Shown here in pieces: positions 33,547 to 46,585 of a stretch of DNA of 64,000 nt. The notes beneath the pieces were generated by a model. The model made no database searches. It was not told the DNA's origin and worked only from the letters and a program-made list of their open reading frames with translations. The first letter of the stretch is position 1. Every line of letters starts with the position of its first letter. The stretch is taken from NCBI GenBank assembly GCA_963770935.1, contig CAVYRJ010000008.1, forward strand, positions 160,001 through 224,000, written 5' to 3'. Source of the stretch: Candidatus Bathyarchaeota archaeon. GTDB taxonomy: Archaea > Thermoproteota > Bathyarchaeia > Bathyarchaeales > Bathycorpusculaceae. A program made the position numbers and the translations under genes.

Positions 33547-34053
33547 TCAATAGCGCTCTCTACGCAGAAAATCGCCCACATCAGAAACGTTTCTAACCGC
33601 AATTTGATTGTTCCCTTCGTCATCGTTCAGGTTTTCAACAATTCTGCCAAAACCTAAACATTCGCCAAACTCGTTAAGAACCAAAGCATTAGTATTTTTC
33701 TTACTTGCACCTTGAACACGCATAATGCTTTTCCCCAAAATATCTCTGCCACAAATAAAAAGCCAAGCCGCCTTCCTATCAACGACAACTCGGTTAGCAC
33801 CCATCTTGGCAAGCATAACGAGTAAATTAAAGCTTGGAAAAAACTTTCCTTCCTTAGCTTTCCCCAAATAAACTCCAACGTAAAAGAAATCCGGCCGAAC
33901 CAACAGCTTCAATACTGGATTCACAAGGTAATATCGTCCATTCTTCTCAACTATCAAATCCAAGTTCAAGGCAATTTGGACTCCTAATTGAACTGCAAAG
34001 TTTGTTATTGGTTTCGGGTTCAAGGCTTGGGACTCCGTTTTTTTAGTTTGCAA
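33547..34053 (-). CDS. NIP7-like PUA-domain ribosome biogenesis protein
   Basis: GVYLGK, AAWLFICGRD, ECLGFG, DVGDFLRRE; downstream of an RsmB-family gene. Confidence 0.8.
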   Translation of the reverse strand: MQTKKTESQALNPKPITNFAVQLGVQIALNLDLIVEKNGRYYLVNPVLKLLVRPDFFYVGVYLGKAKEGKFFPSFNLLVMLAKMGANRVVVDRKAAWLFICGRDILGKSIMRVQGASKKNTNALVLNEFGECLGFGRIVENLNDDEGNNQIAVRNVSDVGDFLRRERY

Positions 34054-34913
34054 ACGAAAAACCCTTGGGTTTCACCGGGCCATAGCCGTCTGCATCGCTT
34101 TATCGTTGGGTCTAGCTGTTTGCCGAATATGTTGGTTATTCCTTTTTCTCCATAGCAATAGGTTTCTTCAATTTGCAGGTTTAGATTTTTTATAGCCCAA
34201 TCGATGTTCAATTCGTCTTCTTCAGGTTCAAGCGAACATGTGGAATAAACAATTTCGCCCTCATCACTTACGCATTCAGCTGTTTTAGAGAGAATTTCCC
34301 GTTGAAGATCCGCATTGCGCTCCACATCTTTTAGGGTTCGGTTTTTAAACCAGTCCCGGTCTGATGCAAAGTTGCCCGAGCAAGGAGCATCCACTATTAT
34401 CCTATCAAACTTGACGTTTAAATTCGCCGCCTGCCTTGCATCCAACAAGTAAACTACTGTGTTGCTAACGTGGCAGCGTTCCAAATGGTTACTCAACGCA
34501 TTCAACCGCCTTTTATCCACATCCAAAGCTATGATGCCGCCAGTATTATCCATCAAATCTGCTAATTGCACAGTTTTGCCTCCAGGCGCCGCTGCTGCAT
34601 CGAGCACTTTTTTACCTTTTAAGTGAGTAAATAGTGAAACTGGGATTTGGGCGGCTGCTTCCTGTATTGAATATAAGCCTAGCAGGTATTCGGCGGTTGC
34701 ACCTGCGGAAACTTTCGAGTCAAGTACCCAATAACCTGAGTCGAGGAAAGGGATTTTTTGCAGGTGAACTCCTAAGTCTTCAAGTCTTGGGAGGAGTTTT
34801 TTTCCTTTTGCGTTAGTATTGTTGATACGGATGGTTTGTTTTAATGTTACCTCCCGGTATTCCCAACCCAGCCGTTTATAGCGGCTTGTAAAAAATTCTT
34901 TGCCCGACATCAA
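34020..34913 (-). CDS. RsmB/NOL1/NOP2 RNA m5C methyltransferase
   Basis: VLDAAAAPGGKT, DAPCSG, VYSTCSL, GFFVCKL. Confidence 0.92.
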   Translation of the reverse strand: MMSGKEFFTSRYKRLGWEYREVTLKQTIRINNTNAKGKKLLPRLEDLGVHLQKIPFLDSGYWVLDSKVSAGATAEYLLGLYSIQEAAAQIPVSLFTHLKGKKVLDAAAAPGGKTVQLADLMDNTGGIIALDVDKRRLNALSNHLERCHVSNTVVYLLDARQAANLNVKFDRIIVDAPCSGNFASDRDWFKNRTLKDVERNADLQREILSKTAECVSDEGEIVYSTCSLEPEEDELNIDWAIKNLNLQIEETYCYGEKGITNIFGKQLDPTIKRCRRLWPGETQGFFVCKLKKRSPKP

Positions 34914-35110
34914 GCAAAAATACTAAGCCACTGATAAAAACTTTTCAAAATAAATTCTTCTGTTCAGAATGCTTTGATTTCTATCAAGAAGCTCCATTTG
35001 ACCAGATAAAGCACTGATGGCAAAATTTTTGCCTATTCCAGTGGATCAAATTTTTTTACCAGAGGATAAAGTTCATTTCCAATAGATTTTGGAAAAAGTT
35101 TGGTTTAGCG

Positions 35111-37993
35111 TTATTCGATGTAGATTGCAGGTTGATAGGGCAGTGCCATCGCTGCACGGTTCTTGGGGTCAATGCGGTTATTATCGTCCTCGCTGAAAAC
35201 AGATACTTCTGCGTTGAAACGTTGCCTAAAAAAACCTGCTGTAGAAGCCAAAATCGACAGTTCGTCCATTGCTTTGATTTTTTGCATGTTGACTTTGCGT
35301 TCGCCAGAAACCTTTGTTAAAGATTTAATAATTCTTGGAACCATGCCTGCAATATTTTTCATATACGGCTTTAGATCTTTGTCCGCAGCGAAATCCTTCA
35401 TTAGCTCACTGATTTTTGTTTCGCCGGCAATTGTTTTTTCAAGGATTTTTAGGTAAACTTTCCATTTCGATGGTGCCGCAGTGTAGTAGCAGATGCGTTT
35501 TGGCGTTATCTTCGTAGCTTTTATGATGTTTGTTGTGTCGTTGATTATATCGGTGATTAGAGTTTCTTGTTCCTCAGCGGCAATATCAATCTTGCTTATG
35601 TCAAAGACTGGCCATTTTGCAACGCTTATGAATCCTTCTTCTCCAGTTTGGCTCCAAAGCTCCTCACAGAGAAAAGGCGCGAAAGGCGAAAGCATCTTTA
35701 ACCATACTTTCACCGCATCACTCAGAGCTTTGGCCTCTGTGTTGCCTTTCCGTTGAATATACCAGCGCAGATCATTCCAAGTCTCAAACAACGCAACCTG
35801 CAATGCAGTTCGGGTTTTAAGTTCATCTAAGTTTGCTGTGACTTCTTTTATTCGACATTGAAGCTTACTAGTAAGCCACCGTTCCAAGGCTGTGTTTTCT
35901 TGGTTTTTGGCAGAGGCAATTATGCCGCTTGCAAATCCAACTAAAGCTTCAAACTTGGTTTGGAGGTCACTTACGTTTTCAGCGCGCCAATCAGGATCAT
36001 CCATGCCCTCAGCACCCAACAACAAACCACATCTTGTTGCGTCGGCGCCATATTTTTCGACAGCTCCCTTCACGGTTATGAAATTGCCTTTGCTTTTGTG
36101 CATTCCTTGTCCTTCGATCATAAGCATGCCGTTAACGCCGATGGCTTTAGGCCAATGTTCTGGTGGAAAGAGCGCGGCATGATGGAAGATACAGAATGAG
36201 AGATGATTTGGTACGAGTTCTTTAGCGGAATTCCTCAAATCAAATGGGTACCAGTACAGGAATTCAGATCGCATTGCATTGAGCAAGGTAGCACTTAATC
36301 CAGTAGTGATTCCAAGTTCAGTTGCATCGCCTTTACCATAGAAAAGAAAATCGAAAACTTCAGGTGTCAACGCTTCAGCGTTAACGTTATTCTGTTTTAT
36401 GTGTTTGTTTACGGTATAGAATGCCATATAGACCGTTGAGTCACTTAATGTTTCGATTATCCAGCCTTTCCCCCAGGGCAGCGGGGTTCCAAAACCAGTT
36501 GTTCTTGCACAAGCCCACTCGCGAAGCCAATCTATAACTGTGTAGAAATTTTGCTTTGCTGAATTGGGATAAATTGTCATTTGAGCGACGACTTGTTTGG
36601 CTTTCTCCTTCCATTGTGGCTCTGAATAGTTTAGGAACCATTGATCAGAGAGGATTTTTACTAAACACTGCGTCATGCACCGGCAAACGACAGGTTCAGC
36701 TAAATCGTACATGGAATCTGCAGCGCCAAGTTTGCGGAAATCAGTTATCAATATGTCTTTGGCTTCGCGGACAGTTTTTCCTGCATATGGTCCGCAGTTT
36801 GCCTTCAGGATGCCACTATGGAATTCTTTTTTGTACAGTTCTTTTGTGGCTTGTTCACCTTTGGGGTCGTTTTGGTCTTTTATGCCCATTTTCTCGACTA
36901 TTTCAACTGCTGGAAACTCACCAAAGCCCTCGACTTTAATGATCGAAATTGGCTTAATTTGCAGTACTGCAGCTGGATCCATGTCGAACTGTGCAAGGAC
37001 TTCTGGTTTTTGCTGCAGATCGCGCAGTGCTAGCCAATCGTATGGTGCGTGGGCTGGAACGCTGTAAACAACGCCTGTGGCGGTTTTGGGGTCAACAAAC
37101 CAGCCGGGTAAAATTGGAAACTTTAGTTTTGTGATAGGATTCTCAAACCATTTGCCAATGAGTTCTTTGCCTTGGAAGTTGCGCTTTACTTCAACTTTTC
37201 TTTCCTGCTCTTTTAGCTTCTCTGATGCTTCTTGGCTAATTATCCAGTTTTCGCCATTAACGGTTGCTTCCACATAGGTAACGTCAGGGTTAATCCATAT
37301 GTTAGTTACACCATAGATTGTTTCAGGGCGGAAAGTTGCCGCGGGCAGAAACGTTTTTTCATCTAGCTTATACTTTATCAATGTATATTCTTCTGCGGTG
37401 ACGCCTTCGCCGCTTTGACGGTCATGGTCACCTGTGGGGCTCTTATCTTTGGGACACCAAACTACTGGGTGCGTACCACGTGTAACATAACCTTTTTCTT
37501 TAAGGTTCTTGTATTGCCACTCGATGAATTTTTGGTAAGTGGGCATCACTGTTGTGAATTCACGTCGCCAATCCACTGAGAAACCGATGCTTTTAGCGGC
37601 TAAGCGACCTTCGTTAGTGTAGTATTGAGCCATATAGATCGGGTCAACGAATTTCTTGAGTTCTTCTTCAGGCACCCCATCGACCTCTCTTAGGACTTTA
37701 ATATATGCTTCATCACCCCGAGCCACACGTTGGCTTGCTCCAAGCAGCGGTTGACCAGTCCAGTGCCAACCCCAAGGCCAAAGCACATTATAACCCTGCA
37801 TACGCTTAAACCGAGCATAAGCATCCACACGAGAAGCGGAGAAAGCATGCCCAACATGAAGTGGACCATTCATGTACGGATATGGAAAAGTCACCATCTT
37901 TTTCTGCCTGTTCGGATCAGGGTCAGCCTCGAAAACATGGGCGTTTTCCCATTTGGCTTGCCATTTCTGCTCGAATTGCTTGGTTTGGCTCAT
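35111..37993 (-). CDS. leuS: Leucyl-tRNA synthetase (archaeal type)
   Basis: FPYPYMNGPLHVGH, DHDRQSGEG, VPAHAPYD, ETLSDSTVY, GMHKSKGN. Confidence 0.95.
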   Translation of the reverse strand: MSQTKQFEQKWQAKWENAHVFEADPDPNRQKKMVTFPYPYMNGPLHVGHAFSASRVDAYARFKRMQGYNVLWPWGWHWTGQPLLGASQRVARGDEAYIKVLREVDGVPEEELKKFVDPIYMAQYYTNEGRLAAKSIGFSVDWRREFTTVMPTYQKFIEWQYKNLKEKGYVTRGTHPVVWCPKDKSPTGDHDRQSGEGVTAEEYTLIKYKLDEKTFLPAATFRPETIYGVTNIWINPDVTYVEATVNGENWIISQEASEKLKEQERKVEVKRNFQGKELIGKWFENPITKLKFPILPGWFVDPKTATGVVYSVPAHAPYDWLALRDLQQKPEVLAQFDMDPAAVLQIKPISIIKVEGFGEFPAVEIVEKMGIKDQNDPKGEQATKELYKKEFHSGILKANCGPYAGKTVREAKDILITDFRKLGAADSMYDLAEPVVCRCMTQCLVKILSDQWFLNYSEPQWKEKAKQVVAQMTIYPNSAKQNFYTVIDWLREWACARTTGFGTPLPWGKGWIIETLSDSTVYMAFYTVNKHIKQNNVNAEALTPEVFDFLFYGKGDATELGITTGLSATLLNAMRSEFLYWYPFDLRNSAKELVPNHLSFCIFHHAALFPPEHWPKAIGVNGMLMIEGQGMHKSKGNFITVKGAVEKYGADATRCGLLLGAEGMDDPDWRAENVSDLQTKFEALVGFASGIIASAKNQENTALERWLTSKLQCRIKEVTANLDELKTRTALQVALFETWNDLRWYIQRKGNTEAKALSDAVKVWLKMLSPFAPFLCEELWSQTGEEGFISVAKWPVFDISKIDIAAEEQETLITDIINDTTNIIKATKITPKRICYYTAAPSKWKVYLKILEKTIAGETKISELMKDFAADKDLKPYMKNIAGMVPRIIKSLTKVSGERKVNMQKIKAMDELSILASTAGFFRQRFNAEVSVFSEDDNNRIDPKNRAAMALPYQPAIYIE

Positions 37994-38100
37994 GAAACCT
38001 TCTGATTAAAGCTTTAGCTATTAAGAGTTTTTCTTGCGTGCATGGTCAAGTGACCTAAAAATACAAATACAAAGACAAACAAAAGGTGCATCGATCACAC

Positions 38101-39099
38101 ATGTCCACCGACGAGGAGTTAATGCAGGAAGTTCAGACCTTTCTAGTTGAGCGCTCAAAAAAGGCCATTTTCTTGGCGAGGGAAGCTATCTTTAAAGAAC
38201 AAATTAAGTACACGCCCCTCCTTGAAGCCCTCACTTATTTTATGCAGGAAGTATGGACAAATGCAGCTCCTCACCCAACTCTTTTGTCCTTAACCTGTGA
38301 AGCAGTCGGGGGAAACCCTGATGCAATAATTGAAATAAGTGCAGCAATGGTGCTGTTGACTGGTGCAGCAGATATCCACGATGACATTATCGACCAATCA
38401 ATAACAAAAGATTCTAAACCTACAGTTTACGGCAAATACGGCAAAGACATTGCAGTCATAGCAGGAGATGTATTGTGGTTCAAAGGCATAATGATGTTAA
38501 ACGAGGCGTGTGAATCGTTCCAAAAAAATAAAAGATATGAAATTCTTGAGATAGCAAAGCAATCCTTCTTTGATATTGGTAGTGCAGAAGCCAACGAAGC
38601 AAATCAAAGAAGAAACCTTGATCTGCAACCTCAGAAATCTCTAGAAATTATTAGAATGAAGGCTTCAGTTGCGGGGGCAGCGGCCAAGATTGGTGCTATT
38701 GTTGGAGGTGGAACCGAGGAAGAAGTTAAAAGCCTAGGCGACTTTGGAGATAACTTGGGATTTCTGATGACTATCCGTGACGAATTTGTAGATGTTTTTG
38801 AGGCAGATGAGTTGAAGAACAGGTTTACTAATGAGTGTTTGCCGCTTCCTATTTTGTACGCTTTCCAAAACATAGTCTTAAAAAGACAAATTTTGGATAT
38901 ACTTAAACAGGCAGACATTAAAGAATCTGATTCAGAAAAAATTGCGGAACTAGTCATTAACTCCCCTCAATTACATAAGCTTACAGGTATCATGAAATCA
39001 TCAATGAAAATAGCTACCGAGAGTTTAACAAATATGAAAAAGAACAAAAATATATTTAATCAATTATTGAAGTCTGCGCTACAAGATTTGCCTTCTTAA
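38101..39099 (+). CDS. Isoprenyl-diphosphate-synthase-fold protein with degenerate motifs (candidate ComQ-like peptide prenyltransferase 1)
   Basis: First Asp-rich motif HDDIID intact; no RRG after it; no N-terminal GKxxR; second motif reads IRDEFVD. The family is clear, the function is inferred. ATG at 38101 (GTG at 38086 is an alternative). Confidence 0.8.
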   Translation: MSTDEELMQEVQTFLVERSKKAIFLAREAIFKEQIKYTPLLEALTYFMQEVWTNAAPHPTLLSLTCEAVGGNPDAIIEISAAMVLLTGAADIHDDIIDQSITKDSKPTVYGKYGKDIAVIAGDVLWFKGIMMLNEACESFQKNKRYEILEIAKQSFFDIGSAEANEANQRRNLDLQPQKSLEIIRMKASVAGAAAKIGAIVGGGTEEEVKSLGDFGDNLGFLMTIRDEFVDVFEADELKNRFTNECLPLPILYAFQNIVLKRQILDILKQADIKESDSEKIAELVINSPQLHKLTGIMKSSMKIATESLTNMKKNKNIFNQLLKSALQDLPS

Positions 39100-39127
39100 A
39101 ATAAATAAAGAAAAAAAAGTTAAGAAT

Positions 39128-39169
39128 TTACCACCAGTACATTCTTACAGGTCTAATTGGTTTTTTCGT
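39128..39169 (-). CDS. Putative 13-aa precursor peptide (M/T)KKPIRPVRMYWW
   Basis: Minus strand reads CAGGAGGAAAGGAAT-ACG AAA AAA CCA ATT AGA CCT GTA AGA ATG TAC TGG TGG TAA: GGAGG 8 nt upstream, TATA-like TTTTAAAG near 39206-39213, T8 tract after the stop. The start codon is ACG rather than ATG. Confidence 0.6.
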   Translation of the reverse strand, partial: TKKPIRPVRMYWW

Positions 39170-39340
39170 ATTCCTTTCCTCCTGTATTGTTGTTGAACGT
39201 ATAAACTTTAAAAGGTTTGCGGTAACTAGCCTCTATGTCAAGACATTTATCAATATTAGCAATCTTGTTTATTACTACTCAAAGCTTATCTTAACCGAAA
39301 TCTCAAATACTTTCTAACTGAACTCGCACGATAGAATTTA

Positions 39341-40666
39341 GTGTTAATCATGGGTAAAACTGGAAAACTCACAATGGATTTGCGCCTAACTCTAGGAAGT
39401 GCCTTTTTAATCGTAAATGCGCTCGTTTGGTATAGTGTTGCAACTAATATTTTGCCATCTATAATAATGAAAGACTCACAAAGTCTATTGTTATGGAGTT
39501 TTCATTTTGTTGCACTAATTATTTCAATTTTTATCGGTATCCTGTTGACTAAAAAAATTGGCACCCGATTCTTGCTTTTGATATGGACGAGTATTGGAAT
39601 TTTTTCTCCTCTAACTTTGTTTGCTATCGATAGTGAAGGTATTCCGCCCTTAGCTATGGTACTTTTCGGTGTATCTCTTGGGTTGGGTATACCGAGTTGC
39701 ATGGCTTACTTTTCTAGATCTACTCAGGCTAACAATCGGGGAAAATTCGCCGGTTTGATAATGCTATTAATTGGCATATTTAGTGTTTTACTGATTGTAT
39801 TAAGTGCAAATAAAATAGAGCCAACAGCCATTATTTTGATGATCTGGCGAACATTTGGGCTGCTATTTTTTCTTGTCCCAAATATAAAGCAACCTATAAT
39901 ACCTGATAAGCACTCAGTATCATTTTCTTTTGTTCTGAAACAAAGGTCCTTCATCTTATACTTGATTCCATGGCTGATGTTTTCTTTAGTTGGTTATCTA
40001 AGTGTGCCTGTGCAGGAAAGCGTTTTAGCGCAACAAGAAATTAATATTCTCAGGCTTGCCGAAAGTATTATTGGAAGTGTTTTTTCCGTAATTACTGGAT
40101 TGCTGATAGGTGTTGTGGGCAGGAAACGTATTGCAATTATTGCATTTGTTTTGGTTGGGATCGAGTTTGCGATTTTAGGAATGTATCCAGACCAAATGGC
40201 AGGATGGATGATCTATACAGTACTTAACGGGGCAGCATGGGGAACGTTCTATGTTCTGTTTGTAATGTCAATTTGGGGAGATTTGAGCCAAAATACTTCG
40301 ATAGAAAAGTACTATGCCCTTGGAATCATTCCGTTCTTTATATCCAAGTATTTGTCGCTAGTGCTAGGAGAAAATGTAGCTGCTGCAGTTTCTGTAAACA
40401 CTTTATTTTCATTCACTGCGTTTTTCCTTTTTCTAGCTGTTTTGCCCTTGGTTTATGCGCCTGAGACTTTGCCTGAAAAAGTCATGAAGGATAGGGATCT
40501 TAAAAGTTACATCGAGAACGCAAAAAAGAAAGCCCAAAAAGATGCTGATAAAGCAGCTAATAACAAAGAGAAAAAATTGAAAAAAGTGTCCGAGGAGAAA
40601 ACTCAAGATGCCAAACCTGATAAGGCCTATGAAGAAGCAAAAAGACTTGCAGAAAAATACTACTAA
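39341..40666 (+). CDS. MFS-like 12-TM protein 1 with charged C-terminal tail
   Basis: About 12 TM helices, NRGKFAG, GRKRIA, APETLPEK, tail ending YEEAKRLAEKYY. Confidence 0.8.
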   Translation: MLIMGKTGKLTMDLRLTLGSAFLIVNALVWYSVATNILPSIIMKDSQSLLLWSFHFVALIISIFIGILLTKKIGTRFLLLIWTSIGIFSPLTLFAIDSEGIPPLAMVLFGVSLGLGIPSCMAYFSRSTQANNRGKFAGLIMLLIGIFSVLLIVLSANKIEPTAIILMIWRTFGLLFFLVPNIKQPIIPDKHSVSFSFVLKQRSFILYLIPWLMFSLVGYLSVPVQESVLAQQEINILRLAESIIGSVFSVITGLLIGVVGRKRIAIIAFVLVGIEFAILGMYPDQMAGWMIYTVLNGAAWGTFYVLFVMSIWGDLSQNTSIEKYYALGIIPFFISKYLSLVLGENVAAAVSVNTLFSFTAFFLFLAVLPLVYAPETLPEKVMKDRDLKSYIENAKKKAQKDADKAANNKEKKLKKVSEEKTQDAKPDKAYEEAKRLAEKYY

Positions 40667-40870
40667 AACGTGGATGATGATTTCACGGAGATTTGTTGGG
40701 GCAAAATAGAATTGAACATGTACCTGCGGCTGTTTGGATTTAATCAATAATCTTTCTTCTTAATGATGAATCCCCAGCTAAAGCTAAATAATCAAGTATT
40801 TTTGTTGTATTGCTGTTCTACTGTTGTTTTGTTGGATAACTATCTCAAAACCGAATGTTTTGGTGTGTAC

Positions 40871-40915
40871 TTATATATTACGAGTCACGACTTGTTTCAT
40901 AAGGGTAAGAGGTGA
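40871..40915 (+). promoter_or_regulatory. TATA box and Shine-Dalgarno of the peptide 2 gene
   Basis: TTATATA at 40871-40877; GAGGTGA at 40909-40915, 5 nt before ATG 40921. Confidence 0.6.
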
Positions 40916-40920
40916 AATAC

Positions 40921-40974
40921 ATGAAACAAAAACAAGCAATCCGAGCTAAACCCATAAATTGGGGTGGATGGTAA
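40921..40974 (+). CDS. Putative 17-aa precursor peptide MKQKQAIRAKPINWGGW
   Basis: ATG...TGG GGT GGA TGG TAA with a strong archaeal SD and TATA box; directly upstream of prenyltransferase 2; resembles peptide 1. Confidence 0.75.
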   Translation: MKQKQAIRAKPINWGGW

Positions 40975-41078
40975 AAAAATCCAGTGCTGAAAAGAAACTT
41001 TCTCACACCAAATTTTGATTTTGAATCTTAATTTTAAAATCTTAACTTACAAATAGTGAAGGTTCTGATTTTACCTGT

Positions 41079-42086
41079 ATGCCAACTAGCTCCCTTACCC
41101 AGAATGCGTTATGCATAATTCAAGGTAAGGGTCATTCTGCGATATCTCAAGCTTGCCAAAAAATATTCCAAAAACAATATGATAGAGGAATAATGCGTGA
41201 AGCATTACACTATTATGCGAAAATGGTTCTTCCAAATGTTCTGCCGATTTTTCCAGCTCTAGGTTACTTATCTAGCAAAGCCGTGGGCATGGTCCCCGAA
41301 AACTACAACTCGGTAGCAAGGGCTATGGTGCTTATAACATCCTCAGGAGATATCCACGATGACATCGTTGACAATTCAAGGAAAAAGTTTGGACGAAAAA
41401 CGGTTTTTGGCAAATTCGGGAAAGATATTGCTATTTTGGCAGGCGATGTATTGCTTATTCAGGGAACAGCAGACCTTCAAAGCGAATGCTACAACCTGTC
41501 AAGCAGGCACAGAAAGGCCATAGTGGATTTGGTTGCTGCCTCGATGTTCGAAATCGTGACAGCTGAAGCACTAGAGATTTCCTTGTGTGATAAAGTTAAT
41601 GCGTCTCCAGAGGAGTATTTTGAGGTCATCAGAATGAAAGGTAGTGTTGGAGAGCTTCATTGCAAAATCGGTGCAATAATCGGTGGCGGAAGTCAAGAAG
41701 CGATCGATGACTTAGGACATTATGGCAGGGTAATCGGGATCTTGTCGACTCTGAAAGAGGAATTTGTTGATATGACAATGTTGGAAGAGTTTAAGCACCG
41801 AATCAAGTACGAATTACCGCCATATCCCATGCTTTGTGCCATGAAGAATAAAGCTCTGAAAAAAAAAATTGTTGGCATCACCGAGGGGCCCAAGTTTTTA
41901 GAGAATGATTTGCAGGCAATTGAGGAAATGGTACTAGGTTCGATAGAAGTAAAAAGGCTCATAGCCGAATTTAGGGACTTAGGCAGAAAAGAATTGACTA
42001 CAAACTTGTTGTTAAAAGAAAATAAAAGAGCAAGTGAGTTGTCGTTTATACTTGAGGCTTTGACAGTTGAATTGTCGCTTGTTTAG
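41079..42086 (+). CDS. Isoprenyl-diphosphate-synthase-fold protein with degenerate motifs (candidate ComQ-like peptide prenyltransferase 2)
   Basis: DIHDDIVD, TVFGKFGKDIAILAGD, IRMKGSV, second motif LKEEFVD; paralog of 38101-39099. Confidence 0.8.
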   Translation: MPTSSLTQNALCIIQGKGHSAISQACQKIFQKQYDRGIMREALHYYAKMVLPNVLPIFPALGYLSSKAVGMVPENYNSVARAMVLITSSGDIHDDIVDNSRKKFGRKTVFGKFGKDIAILAGDVLLIQGTADLQSECYNLSSRHRKAIVDLVAASMFEIVTAEALEISLCDKVNASPEEYFEVIRMKGSVGELHCKIGAIIGGGSQEAIDDLGHYGRVIGILSTLKEEFVDMTMLEEFKHRIKYELPPYPMLCAMKNKALKKKIVGITEGPKFLENDLQAIEEMVLGSIEVKRLIAEFRDLGRKELTTNLLLKENKRASELSFILEALTVELSLV

Positions 42087-42165
42087 CTATTTATCTTGAA
42101 TATGGATTCAATCACTGATGTATTATTTCTTAATGTTTAATAATACTTACACTTATCGTTATCCT

Positions 42166-43536
42166 GTGCACCCAAAACGCTAAGAATAATCGGTAAAAAA
42201 ATATCGTCAATCTCAAAAGAAACGTTAGTAAGCACTTTTTTAGTAGCGAACGCTTTTGTTTGGTATCTTTGCGGATTCGGGTATTTGCAAGACATAACAA
42301 GTACGAATTTTAGCGGTAATTCACTACTATTAATGGTTAGCGGCAATTTCGTCAGCTTGGTTTTATCTGCCTTTGCTTCTTCCCTTTTAACAAGCAAATT
42401 CAAGCATAGATTAAATTTTCTCAAATATTGGAGTATTGCAGGTGCATCACTTTCAATCATTTTCGCTATCATAAACCTGCAAGAGCTTACAAATATAATA
42501 GCAATTGCAATCATAATTGGTTCGTACTTCGGTATAGGAATGCCCGTTTGCATGGGCTACTACGCAAATTCAACTAAGCCTCAAAACCGAGCAAAACTAA
42601 GTGGAATCATAATACTTTTTATAGGAATAGGTTATCCAGCTATCTCTATAATTGGAAACAATGCACCGCTCTTTTTAGCCGCCACTTTGGCGGTATGGCG
42701 AATCTCGAGTTTATTTCTTATTCGATATATTAAGCCCGCTGAGCAACAAGAAGAGTCAAAACAGAGGGTTACTTACCGGTCAATAATTACAAACAAGAGT
42801 TTTGTTCTCTATGCTCTCCCATGGCTAATGTTTTCTCTCATAAACGACCTGACAATGCAGTTGAATACTAGCTGACTTTAGTAGCAGTACATTTCCCCAG
42901 GCTTTTGGAAATAACTTTCTGCTTATAGAAATGGTCTTAGCTGGGGCTTCAGCAATTATTTGTGGGCTTTTAGCTGATAGGAAAGGTCGAAAACGATTGG
43001 CATTGATCGGCTTTGTACTTTTAGGCGTTGGGTATGCTTCTTTAGGGATTTTTACCGGCAACTACCTTGCAGCCTGGTTTTATGTATGTGTTGACGGTAT
43101 CGCGTGGGGTGCTTTTTCAATGTTGTTTTTAGTAACTCTCTGGGGGGATATTGCTCAGGGAAAAAGCGCTGAGAAATATTATGTTCTTGGAGTCCTTCCA
43201 TATTTGTTTTCAAACCTAGCTCGCGTTTTAGCTGGAACTTACATATCAGCTAATATGATAGAGGGAACGGCTTTCTCGTTTGCCAGCTTCTTTCTATTCA
43301 TTGCAATACTGCCTATAGCATTTGCTCCAGAGACCTTGTCTGAAAAAATAATAAAGAAACTAGACCTCAATAGCTATGTCAACCAAGCATTGGAGAAAGC
43401 AAAGAAAAAGAATGCAAAAAATGTGGAGCCAGGTCAAAGAGTTGTATCACAGAATGAAATGACAAGCAATGATGAAGCCGATGATACGTCAAAAGAGTAC
43501 GAAGAAGCAAAGAAGTTGGCGGAAAAATACTATTAA
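42166..43536 (+). CDS. MFS-like 12-TM protein 2 (frameshift near 42872; start uncertain)
   Basis: FLVANAFVWY upstream of ORF 42285 matches FLIVNALVWY of paralog 1; NRAKLSG, DRKGRKRLA, APETLSEK, ends YEEAKKLAEKYY. Confidence 0.75.
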
Positions 43537-43561
43537 GTCGGACGTTTGTTGATATGGTTTC

Positions 43562-44693
43562 ATGTTCTTTCACGTGATACTTACCAGTGACTGCAATTTG
43601 CAGTGCAAGTACTGTTTTGGCGAGAGCCTTGATGACTTTGACGAAGAATTCGGCGACGATATAGAAGTCGACTACGATTTGCCACGCAACCTCAGCTATG
43701 ATTTAGAGCCTCTGAACAAGTTCTGCCGACAAGACCCTAATTGTGTTTTGACCTTCTATGGTGGAGAACCCCTGCTGCAGATGGATAAACTTAGGCAAAT
43801 TATGAATAAAGTGACCCCTAAACATTATATGATGCAAACAAACGGTTTACTTCTTGACAAACTTGAACCAAAATATGTTAACCGTTTCCACACTATCCTT
43901 GTCTCGATTGATGGGCAAGAAGACCTGACGGATGCTTATCGAGGAGCAGGAACTTACCGGAAAGTCATCGAGAACCTAAAATTAATCAAGAAAAACGGAT
44001 TTAAGGGAGAATTAATTGCTCGCATGACCATAATGGAGCAAACCGACATAGAAAAACAAGTCAAATATCTCTTGAACAACCCGGATTTTTCGTTTACCTC
44101 GATTCATTGGCAACTTAACGCTGGTTTCTGGGGCAATGACTATCAAAGGCGCAACTTTGAGGAGTGGACCAAAACCAGCTACATTCCAGGGGTTGAAAGG
44201 CTGGTGCATTTTTGGGTTGACCAAATCCAAGATAAGGGCACTGTGCTTAAACTATACCCAATTTTGGGCATAGCAAACTCGCTTTTGCATGAAGAGAAAA
44301 AATGCCTGATGCGTTGCGGAGGCGGCTGGATAAACTACGCTATCCAAACTGACGGCTACATTATTCCTTGCCCAACCATGTGGGGGATGAAGGAATACTA
44401 TCTTGGGCATATAAAAGATGCCGACCCTCTAAAACTTGAGACGAATTTTCGTAGACGAGAAACCTTGTGTGGACTGCAAAAATCTGGATATTTGCGGGGG
44501 AAGATGCCTATACACTAATATAACCAAAAGATGGAGCGATGATGCTTACAATAAAGTTTGCAACACGGTGGAACAATTAATCAAAGCAGTAGAATGCGAA
44601 GTCCCACGCATCCGAAGGTTGATCAGTAAGGGAAAAGTTGGGATAGATGACTTTGATTATGTAAAATATAATGGTGCTGAAATCATACCTTAG
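43562..44693 (+). CDS. Radical SAM/SPASM enzyme (resembles the TIGR04084/AF0577 family), frameshift near 44440
   Basis: CNLQCKYC, FYGGEP, QTNG, SIDG; SPASM cysteines CGGG...DGYIIPCP then CVDCKNLDICGGRC in the next frame. Confidence 0.85.
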
Positions 44694-44854
44694 AGTTGTT
44701 TGTATACAACATTTTTTTTCTCTTTCCCATTGAATTGTTTATTCGATGTTTTGTCTGATTTCTGCCCGATGGATTTCTTTAGTGTCAATCTGAATGGAAT
44801 TGACGGGCTGGTCAAAATTTATTATGAGTCCTTTGGAATTGGTATTCGAATTCT

Positions 44855-45448
44855 TTATTTTGAAAGCAGGAAAAGTCCGACTTCACCGAAAAGGTTGGGC
44901 AAAACCGAAACCTCCTTGTCCTTAGAGATGAAAACCGCTTTTTCGATACATATCCCACTTTTTTTGCAATATTCTTTGAAGTCAGCGATGCTTAGAAAGT
45001 GTAAGTTAGGAGTATCATACCACTCATAAGGCAGAGATGGGGTAACTGGGACTTTTCCGCGGAAGAAAATCTGGAAGCGATCAGTGATATAGCAAAAATT
45101 TGGGAAACCAACGATTACTTTTTTGCCGACACGCAAGGCCTCTTTTATCGCAAAATCAGGTTTCTTGACTTGTTGTAATGTTTGGTTTAGGATAACGTAG
45201 TCTACGCTTTTGTCAGCGTATTCGGTTAATCCAGTGTCGATGTCTTGCTGGAACACGCTTAAGCCTGCTGCTACGCAGTTGTGGATGGCTTGTTCGCTGA
45301 GTTCCACGCCTTGTGCATGCACTTGCTTGTTGCGGATCAGCAAATTGAGAAGTTCGCCGTCGCCGCATCCCAAATCCAAAACGGATGCTCCGCTGCTAAT
45401 CCAGCTTGAAATGACTTTGTGCTCAATTACATGGGTTTGCTTTGTCAT
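44855..45448 (-). CDS. metW: Methionine biosynthesis protein MetW
   Basis: [31 protein letters not shown]; adjacent to metX. Confidence 0.92.
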
Positions 45449-46585
45449 GTACGACCGCCATTTTTGTTTCCATTGGATACAGCTGTCAAAAAGCCCCCGA
45501 TAAGTTGCGTTTCCTGCTCTGTTTCCAACAGGAAAGAGTCATGGCCATAAGTGCTGTTTATTTCGCAGTAGCTTGCCTCTACGCCTGCTAGTTTGCATGC
45601 TTTAACGATTTCTTGGCTTTGGTAGGCTGGGTAGAGCCAGTCAGACTTGAAAGCCAGAACGAGAACTTTTGCCTTTAATCCTTTAAAGACATTGCCTAAA
45701 GCATGGCCGTTGAGAACGTTAAAGTTGTCGATGGCTTTAGTGATGTAGAGATAACTGTTGGCATCGAACCGTTTGACAAAGTTGTCTCCTCTGTAGCGAA
45801 GGTACCCTTCGACTTCGAAGTCTGCGCTGAACTTGAAAGGTTCCTTATCAGCTCTGGTTTTTCTGCCAAACTTTTCAGTCATTGAAGTGTCGCTCATATA
45901 AGTAATGTGTCCAATCATTCGGGCAACGGCTAAACCTTTTGAGGGAGGTTTTGAACCGTAATATTCGCCATTTTTCCAGTCAGGATCTGACATCACAGCT
46001 TGTCGCCCAACCTCGTTGAATGCTATTTGCTGAGGGGTATGTTTCAGCGCCGTTGCAATTGGAATTGCTGAACATATCCATTCGGGATATGAAACCATCC
46101 ATTGCAGCACTTGCATTCCACCCATGGAACCGCCGATAACCGCCAATAACTTCTTGATACCCAAGTGATCAATGAGTTGTTTTTGTGCTTCAACCATGTC
46201 GCCGACGCTAACAAGTGGGAAACTTAGACCGTAAGGCTTTCCTGTTTTATGATCAATTGAAGATGGACCTGTCGAGCCCTTGCAGCCTCCGATAACGTTG
46301 CTGCATATTACAAAGTACTTGTCTGTGTCAATGCCTTTGCCTTGACCTATTAGGTTTCCCCACCAGCCATCGGGTCCAGCAGCATGGGCGTCTCCGCTGA
46401 GTGCATGAAGAACAAGAATTGCGTTTGATTTTTGCGCATTCAATTTGCCGTATGTTTCGTAGGCAAGCGTAATTGGACCTAATTTTTCACCCGATTCCAA
46501 CGTTAACTCATCAGGGGGTTGGGCGAAAGTATAAGTTTTGTGTTTGGCTGGTTTTTTCGTTGGTTATTAGCTTGTTTGCCTCCAT
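45445..46585 (-). CDS. metX: Homoserine O-acetyltransferase (N-terminal indel)
   Basis: [30 protein letters not shown]; [15 protein letters not shown] lies upstream of ORF 46500; ATG at 46585 is out of frame by one base. Confidence 0.92.

Follow-up and report, generated by a model that had tools for sequence, protein, structure and literature searches.

A conserved ACG codon at the start position of a short, tryptophan-tailed peptide gene next to a prenyltransferase-like gene of Bathyarchaeia

ComQ, PalQ and StheQ are reported to be enzymes resembling isoprenyl diphosphate synthases (IDS) that prenylate a Trp near the C-terminus of an adjacently encoded peptide (PMC13290415; PMC10853753; 10.64898/2026.08.29.745113). 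PalQ is described as specific for a C-terminal Trp, favouring GW or GGW ends (PMC10853753; PMC13290415), and as contacting the indole NH through a conserved Gln adjacent to the second Asp-rich motif (SARM) (PMC10853753), and ComQ is said to carry a pseudo-SARM, NDxxx, in place of DDxxD (10.64898/2026.08.29.745113). In a 2026 review of peptide prenylation, archaea appear only for lipobox lipidation. The stretch of DNA analysed here, referred to as the window, comprises 64,000 nucleotides of a Candidatus Bathyarchaeota archaeon (assembly GCA_963770935.1, contig CAVYRJ010000008.1, positions 160,001 to 224,000). It contains, on the minus strand, a gene of 13 codons, named peptide gene 1, which lies between the genes of an IDS-like enzyme (PT1) and of a transporter of the major facilitator superfamily (MFS1), and in which an ACG codon occupies the place of the start codon. 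Our literature search found no published description of archaeal peptide prenylation or of such a Bathyarchaeia cassette; the supplementary homolog lists of PalQ and StheQ could contain archaeal homologs.

The minus-strand frame of peptide gene 1 (39169-39128) reads ACG AAA AAA CCA ATT AGA CCT GTA AGA ATG TAC TGG TGG TAA, with ACG at 39169-39167, 12 further codons and the TAA stop at 39130-39128. Orthologs retain this frame, and their codon at the ACG site is either ACG or ATG. Its product is (M/T)KKPIRPVRMYWW, that is TKKPIRPVRMYWW in the form read from the window and MKKPIRPVRMYWW if started with Met. On the same strand ACAGGAGGAAAGGAAT precedes the ACG and ATTCTTAACTTTTTTTTC follows the TAA. 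A Shine-Dalgarno (SD) motif, GGAGG (39178-39182), is located 8 nt before the ACG, and ACAGGAGG(A)AAGGA is kept across the clade. About 35 nt upstream of the ACG lies a promoter element resembling a B recognition element followed by a TATA box (BRE/TATA), ACCGCAAACCTTTTAAAG (39206-39223, containing TTTTAAAG at 39213-39206), which is conserved in orthologs. Between this element and the SD, alignments delimit an inverted-repeat box, GTTCAACA, followed by ATACAG (39182-39198), probably the operator and transcription start region, and the 5' leader is short (~16 nt). The stop is followed by ATTCTTAAC and then by a run of eight T (39111-39118), probably an archaeal oligo-T terminator, T-runs being also present after the stop in orthologs. 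The gene converges with PT1 (38086-39099, plus strand, 337 aa), the two stop codons being 28 nt apart, and diverges from MFS1 (39341-40666, plus strand, 441 aa). No in-frame ATG, GTG or TTG is found between the upstream stop and the ACG, and the sole in-frame ATG of the gene would yield MYWW. A preliminary description of the window had already placed here a minus-strand peptide gene with ACG at its start, oriented in this way towards its two neighbours, with the GGAGG, the TATA-like element, the T8 run, the truncated MYWW as sole ATG product and a kinship to a second peptide of the window (MKQKQAIRAKPINWGGW). Coordinates and features all proved correct on re-reading, and the signals are conserved at orthologous loci. 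The only difference seen in contigs of public sequencing runs is a T>G at 39120 (plus strand) in X1 and X2; this site is in the 3' untranslated part, two bases ahead of the T8 run.

An IDS-like prenyltransferase (PT) gene, a convergent mini-peptide gene and then an MFS transporter gene form a cassette that recurs among Bathyarchaeia. PT1 homologs were present in 27 of the 41 related genomes searched (G000 included). A pattern search of genome contigs matched 302 stretches, 203 of which were confirmed by tblastn, and the best 80 of these 203, which were kept, have titles that are almost all Bathyarchaeota or Bathyarchaeia. The closest relatives in a collection of named genomes are metagenome-assembled genomes (MAGs) of Candidatus Bathyarchaeota/Bathyarchaeia, three of which correspond, by sequence identity, to the same-genus genomes G010, G012 and G023 of the related set. 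The search for peptide genes covered the 76 loci in which the PT gene was flanked on each side by 260 nt or more. It took stop-to-stop open reading frames (ORFs) that ended between -20 and +250 nt from the PT stop, had a Trp among their four final residues and contained three or more K/R in the final 20. A K/R-rich, Trp-tailed ORF convergent with and downstream of PT was found in 65 of the 76 loci and in none of the other 11, compared with control counts of 8 for the same strand downstream, 18 for the same strand upstream and 5 for the opposite strand upstream; the control positions were filtered identically, the filter having been set after the first examples had been seen. Of 76 loci whose sequence extends 900 nt or more past the PT gene (four shorter ones were dropped), 72 have a homolog of MFS1 downstream on the PT strand.

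The family ORFs span ~12-27 codons from the start codon (for example MKKPIRPIRGYWW, MKNNKPIRLAGSWI, MKARKKPVRSHGWSWWW, MRVKPIRAKVWG and MKKKRKVIRGMYWWG), and the length of the peptides, by their sequences, leaves no room for a leader such as those of ComX, PalX and StheX. Trp is the last residue in the peptides of the window (WW*, GGW*), and many family members have one to three residues after it (WWM, GWA, YWG, WCPS). The promoters follow a common plan, with a CGCAAAsCTTTTAAG-like BRE/TATA element, an inverted-repeat box, ATACAG, a purine-rich SD and the start codon. A TATA-like hexamer was present upstream in 55 of 62 family promoters (a count made without a control), and a TGTn(1-3)ACA/TGTACA box (TGTnnAACA or TGTACA) in 50 of 62, versus 182 of 5000 random 43-nt windows; the copy at peptide gene 1, CGTTCAACA, fails the search pattern of the box. 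T5 or longer occurred within 40 nt past the stop in 23 of the 62 members. At some loci a second copy of the box stands upstream of the TATA element, and the box looks like an operator. Peptide gene 1 is thus a real gene for a lysine-rich, Trp-tailed peptide and, since cassette, peptide features and promoter plan are common to the family, it differs, as judged from sequence, from the other members of this conserved gene family in its first codon only.

The start codons of the convergent peptides, tallied by a simple script and corrected by eye for loci L098, L061, L076 and the non-canonical rows, were ~46 ATG, ~6 TTG, 3-5 GTG and 6 ACG. The apparent ACG start of L098 was rejected as an artefact, since it is the TTG codon following it that lines up with the L099 ATG, and at L061 and L076 the start scored as GTG is probably an ATG four codons further on. 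Of the 15 rows initially scored as non-canonical, six were the ACG genes and nine were second or noise ORFs or, for L091, an ATG gene whose SD had been missed by the pattern. TTG starts behind a good SD were seen at L013, L021 (1363-1410), L022, L045, L050, L051 and L056, weak starts being common beyond the ACG clade.

ACG was found only in the window's own PT clade (support 100/100), in six of its nine rows (the window's own, L038=L004, L039=L006, L040=L005, L041 and L043), among which L040 and L041 are nearly identical and were counted as one lineage. The ATG rows of the same clade, L036, L037 and L042, are interleaved with the ACG rows on the PT tree. The ACG stands at exactly the ATG position (ACAGGAGG(A)AAGGAnn-ACG/ATG-AA(A/C)-AAA-CC) and aligns with the ATG of L036, L037, L042, L116 and L117, with GGAGG 7-8 nt upstream. 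No other in-frame start (ATG, GTG or TTG) is common to the ACG-clade loci, and the region upstream of the ACG is non-coding, because a 1-nt indel in the SD spacer of L038 (=L004) shifts the upstream frame. A metagenome scan, whose pattern allowed ACG or ATG and required ACAGGAGG, so that its counts are uninformative on SD strength, returned five contigs, three with ACG (L118, L119 and L120; peptides TKKPIRPIRMAWW and, twice, TKKPLKPIRSYWW) and two with ATG (MKKPSRPIRSYWD and MKKPLRPIRSFWE). The flanks of L119 equal those of L043, so that the two may represent the same population, and those of L120 differ.

For the ACG the preliminary description had left the choice between a base-call error, a non-canonical start and an inactivating mutation. 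An error of sequencing or assembly in this MAG, the true base giving ATG, might be suspected from the long-read-style contig names of the nearest related records and from the frame breaks in nearby genes. The same ACG is nevertheless present at five other genome loci (two projects) and in three metagenome contigs, and 151-nt contigs of runs X1, X2 and X5 (two studies) match 39167-39169 without difference, which confirms the C at 39168, the base that was to be checked; one of these runs may be the source sample, and no public run contained half of the sampled words. An error is thus excluded, as far as independent assemblies allow. Since it is conserved in related species, the ACG is probably a genuine weak start codon, as far as sequence comparison can tell.

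Constraint on the peptide was measured by pairwise differences over the six core codons PxRPxR. Eight rows differed 38/7/91 times at codon positions 1/2/3, with 66 synonymous and 35 non-synonymous differences, and the five ACG rows 16/4/31 times, with 18 synonymous and 17 non-synonymous differences and with replacements confined to I/L/V, R/K and one R/G (L038). The predominance of third-position and synonymous changes indicates, at the level of the codons, that the peptide is under selection. Stops and frameshifts were absent from all nine ACG alleles (seven distinct sequences). Orthologous loci preserved the frame together with the KP(I/L)RPIR core and the W-rich tail, and the loss of the frame or of the terminal WW, named beforehand as refuting the gene, was not seen. 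This bears also on the idea that the stretch is non-coding, a conserved promoter/operator or a small RNA serving the divergent MFS1 gene, to which the conserved non-coding boxes of the intergenic region and the very short ORF might point. The codon periodicity of the variation (38/7/91) and the layout of the family members, in which an SD precedes an ATG, TTG or GTG start and T-runs come after the stop, argue against it, as do the absence of Rfam matches in 38950-39400 at E up to 1 and the lack of a significant fold in the 82-nt putative transcript (z -0.75), and we consider it very improbable.

More weight has to be given to the possibility that the ACG marks non-producer alleles, in which an ATG to ACG change silenced the peptide gene in recent or recurrent losses, PT1 and MFS1 being kept for another substrate, for instance one of the peptide 2 type. 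ACG is reported as a very poor start in E. coli, at ~0.1-1% of AUG (10.1101/063800). A second PT-peptide cassette is present in many of these genomes, and in the cassette next to peptide gene 1 one transporter gene (MFS2) is split and a radical SAM gene is frameshifted; among the ACG rows, moreover, non-synonymous differences (17) about equal synonymous ones (18). Against such losses, the ACG is kept in lineages whose PT enzymes are only 51-58% identical to PT1 and whose 3' flanks are hardly alignable, with frame, SD, promoter and terminator still in place, no break in nine alleles and PT1 and MFS1 orthologs intact in the ACG genomes; the differences are concentrated at third positions, and the replacements are mostly conservative (the R-to-G of L038 apart). 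Whether the ACG arose once and was long retained or switched repeatedly with ATG, a functional allele would be a better fit than a dead one. From the sequences compared, an inactivating mutation private to this genome is therefore unlikely, non-producer alleles in general appear rather improbable, and of the three options the non-canonical start is the one best supported by sequence comparison.

In archaea the SD is described to position the 30S subunit, and the match between codon and anticodon in the P site is then checked by aIF1, aIF1A and aIF2 (PMC7531240). For E. coli reporters, ACG is listed in a group of codons initiating at ~0.1-1% of AUG, with N-termini that are mostly Met and in part Thr (10.1101/063800). 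A search with aragorn (without introns) found 27 tRNAs in the genome, including two tRNA(CAU), one of which has archaeal initiator features (A1:U72 and an anticodon stem with three G:C pairs). Its elongator tRNA-Thr(CGU) is normal. A dedicated initiator tRNA for ACG was rejected on account of this standard initiator tRNA(CAU) and the normal tRNA-Thr(CGU). The ordinary initiator Met-tRNA with anticodon CAU might instead read the ACG as a near-cognate codon, with one central mismatch, on a 30S subunit positioned by the SD. Alternatively, C-to-U editing of the transcript could turn ACG into AUG, as at some chloroplast starts, for which such editing is documented in an article whose reference list also holds titles on ACG initiation (PMC9845219). 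Editing would explain why ACG alone, and no other near-cognate codon, replaces ATG; a T-to-C transition in the DNA explains this choice equally well. We know of no archaeal mRNA editing of the ACG to AUG kind, no specific search for it having been made, and editing seems to us highly improbable here.

PT1 matches PF00348 (87.5 bits). Its best NCBIfam synthase model is IdsA (104.5 bits against a cut-off of 468), and PT1 and its paralog PT2 remain far below every NCBIfam synthase cut-off. The first Asp-rich motif (FARM) of PT1 is DDIID (DIHDDIID), and all 12 aligned family members carry DIHDDI(I/V)D. PT1 reads AAPHP at the GKRxR site, KDS at the RRG site and MTIRDEFVD where synthases have FQxxDDxxD. 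In the IDS family the GKRxR, RRG and FQ Gln residues bind isopentenyl diphosphate (IPP). They are absent across the PT family, and all the canonical motifs are present in the separate synthase of the same genome (L003) and in the structure 1wy0. The SARM region reads RDEFVD in PT1 and KEEFVD in PT2, and its DEFVD in PT1 might still bind metal; none of the 12 aligned sequences has Asn at the pseudo-SARM position, and at the FQ position PT1 has Thr, the 12 sequences together showing Thr, Ser, Gly, Ile or Ala. As the IPP-binding residues are absent and the FARM is kept, PT1 has, to judge from its motifs, probably given up chain elongation and kept the allylic donor site. The Asn and Gln hallmarks are missing and PT1 is by sequence as near to GGPP synthases as to Ord1; we therefore take the archaeal enzymes to resemble ComQ/PalQ in their action but not to be members of those families.

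The gene might also be translated into a peptide that is no prenylation substrate, PT1 making or transferring a prenyl chain for another purpose and the peptide being, for instance, a membrane peptide, a regulator of MFS1 or itself a cargo for transport. The sequence matches of PT1 in the PDB, with the GGPP synthase 1wy0 first (E 7e-21) and Ord1 among the best (9v4h, E 7e-17), are in line with this idea, as is the absence from PT1 of the Asn and Gln features of ComQ, StheQ and PalQ. It accounts poorly for the family-wide absence of IPP-binding residues while the genome keeps a separate canonical synthase, for the near-obligate neighbourhood of PT and peptide (65 of 76 loci) and for the Trp that all peptides have within their last four residues (also a search criterion), where ComQ, PalQ and StheQ act. 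We regard it as fairly unlikely.

We return to a translated and modified peptide. Peptide gene 1 is a mini-gene that carries a BRE/TATA promoter of its own, a box resembling an operator, a short GGAGG-bearing leader, 13 codons and a probable oligo-T terminator. Its conserved near-cognate ACG, read by the initiator Met-tRNA, would yield MKKPIRPVRMYWW with an N-terminal Met at a lower rate than the AUG allele, so that the alternation of ACG and ATG at one site within the clade would be an evolutionary setting of the amount of peptide. PT1 would then prenylate a C-terminal Trp of this low-level leaderless precursor, and MFS1 would export the cationic lipopeptide, which may act as a signal or a membrane-active agent. 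Export is proposed because the MFS partner is conserved, and the signal or membrane-active role is suggested by the strong positive charge and the predicted lipidated Trp tail. Towards this chain of steps, taken as a whole, we lean slightly.

Several observations weigh against it. ACG is not a listed start in NCBI table 11 or in any other NCBI code table, and no archaeal precedent of an ACG start was found in the literature; one paper considered (10.64898/2026.09.13.751334) names ACG solely as a Thr codon and is not relevant to the question. Across the genome, ACG is not enriched 6-9 nt past GGAGG before frames of at least 100 codons (ACG 6 of 77, ATG 40 of 145), in a crude scan, GGAGG being a poor gene-start marker in this genome. 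The parity of synonymous and non-synonymous differences in the ACG rows (18 versus 17) comes from six codons only and a small sample. On the PT tree the fewest ATG/ACG changes are three, and a tree in which the ACG rows are monophyletic is not firmly rejected by the approximately unbiased test (p-AU 0.052; the group was named after the tree had been seen), so that neither one nor several origins of the ACG are firm and repeated toggling is unproven. The split MFS2 and the frameshifted radical SAM gene reflect either gene decay or indel errors of long-read assembly. The lone contig from an RNA library that could be placed (run X3) covers part of PT1 and not the peptide gene. Finally, PT1 has neither the pseudo-SARM Asn of ComQ/StheQ nor the SARM-adjacent Gln of PalQ, and Trp prenylation is for this reason argued from gene neighbourhood and analogy.

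In the second cassette of the window, peptide gene 2 (MKQKQAIRAKPINWGGW, ATG start, 40921-40974, plus strand) is located just upstream of PT2 (41079-42086, plus strand; PF00348, 70.8 bits), an IDS-like paralog 35-37% identical to PT1. MFS1, the proposed exporter, matches MFS_1 weakly (30.7 bits, below the cut-off of 33.4), as does MFS2, which comes in two separate frames (42285-42875 and 42931-43536); a frameshift near 44433-44518 interrupts the TIGR04084 radical SAM/SPASM gene (43562-44693). Both MFS proteins end in a long, conserved, cytoplasmic K/E-rich tail closing with YEEAK(R/K)LAEKYY (40540-40666 and 43420-43536). The ORFs of at least 150 aa that overlap 34-46.6 kb (33547-46500) are one at 33547-34053 (not profiled), a SAM-methyltransferase-like one (by sequence reading), leucyl-tRNA synthetase (LeuRS), PT1, MFS1, PT2, MFS2, radical SAM, MetW and an alpha/beta hydrolase. 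No histidine kinase is present among them; the remaining genome (assembly of 1.98 Mb in 18 contigs) was not searched for one. The 3' part of PT1 (38830-39029) is matched without difference by a 200-nt contig from the metatranscriptomic run X3, a hint at PT1 transcription in some sample that may be DNA carry-over. The G+C content of the cassette is 0.37-0.39, that of its flanks 0.42-0.45. The LeuRS gene adjoins the cassette (35111-38086), and its same antisense frame (...AWFGS) is found upstream of PT in L036, L037, L038 and L063. Because this frame recurs in relatives, the locus appears from the sequences to be a stable chromosomal site and no obvious mobile island, despite its lower G+C.

Variants of the cassette were also seen elsewhere. 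Upstream same-strand peptides resembling peptide 2 occur at L021, L023, L015 and L027. At L074 (901-1218, minus strand) two tandem peptide genes (MKRTKPIRPIRMYWA and MKREKPIRPIRKYWT) follow one PT gene on a contig labelled Nanoarchaeia, and the labels Caldiserica (L085) and Anaerolineales (L105) stand on further contigs with the cassette; all three labels could be due to mis-binning or to gene transfer. In G030 (C13, 75581-77633; L007/L030) a single convergent peptide gene (MSDMTTKRKKKEAKLKPPRLFSW or a shorter version of it) comes after two tandem PT paralogs.

In a wider and more tentative interpretation, away from which we lean a little when it is taken as a whole, a Bathyarchaeia clade would maintain a native ACG start, alternating with ATG, as a heritable setting of peptide dose, within a first archaeal family of ribosomal Trp-prenylated peptides that are leaderless, short and cationic and are served by an independently derived IDS-like PT and a dedicated MFS exporter. 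If so, these peptides would be an archaeal counterpart of the lipopeptide signals or antimicrobials of the ComX/PalX type, in one of the most abundant archaeal lineages of sediment and soil, and Trp prenylation of ribosomal peptides would extend from Firmicutes and Chloroflexi to Archaea. If the ACG initiates, it would be a natural conserved ACG start in an archaeon, in no genetic-code table and invisible to gene callers, and small archaeal genes would be missed twice over, by their size and by their start codon. A minimal leaderless precursor would also be attractive for enzymatic peptide lipidation. The cassette offers a testable handle on signalling or antagonism between cells in uncultured Bathyarchaeia, the peptides being short enough for synthesis and the enzyme expressible.

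With respect to its start codon, peptide gene 1 resembles the near-cognate ACG initiation of eukaryotic and viral mRNAs and of E. coli reporters, as well as the edited chloroplast starts, in that ACG would stand for AUG with a Met start; it would differ from them as a conserved native ACG start behind a Shine-Dalgarno motif in an archaeon. Its suggested enzyme can be set against several known ones. Like the canonical archaeal IdsA/GGPP synthases, PT1 belongs to PF00348, with the same FARM motif and a similar length; unlike them it scores 104.5 bits against an equivalog cut-off of 468, has no GKRxR, RRG or FQ Gln and has a DExxD SARM. With StheQ-StheX of Sphaerobacter and with Ord1 (PDB 9V4G-J), Trp prenyltransferases outside Firmicutes, it shares the IDS fold, and Ord1 is among its best PDB matches. 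StheX is reported to have 69 residues and StheQ to use an Asn/Asp pseudo-SARM with a Gln one helical turn before it, unlike the family described here, and Ord1 is stated in the review to act on free tryptophan; PT1 matches 1wy0, a true archaeal GGPP synthase, slightly better than Ord1. PalQ-PalX of Paenibacillus alvei also has an IDS-like enzyme, and the WW end of peptide 1 and the WGGW end of peptide 2 recall its substrate, whereas the nitrile-hydratase-type leader of PalX and its neighbouring histidine kinase are both missing at this locus. The SARM-adjacent Gln of PalQ is replaced by Thr, Ser, Gly, Ile or Ala in the archaeal family, and the one to three residues that follow Trp in many family peptides are of a kind reported to abolish PalQ activity. 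As in ComQ-ComX (comQXPA of Bacillus), there is an IDS fold with an intact first Asp-rich motif and an adjacent small gene with Trp near the C-terminus. In contrast to that system, the locus is archaeal, its strongly cationic peptides come from a precursor of 12-25 residues that has no cleavable leader, the peptide gene converges with the enzyme gene instead of sharing an operon with it, the SARM is DEFVD and not a pseudo-SARM NDxxx, and the conserved partner is an MFS transporter in place of the ComP/ComA kinase and regulator.

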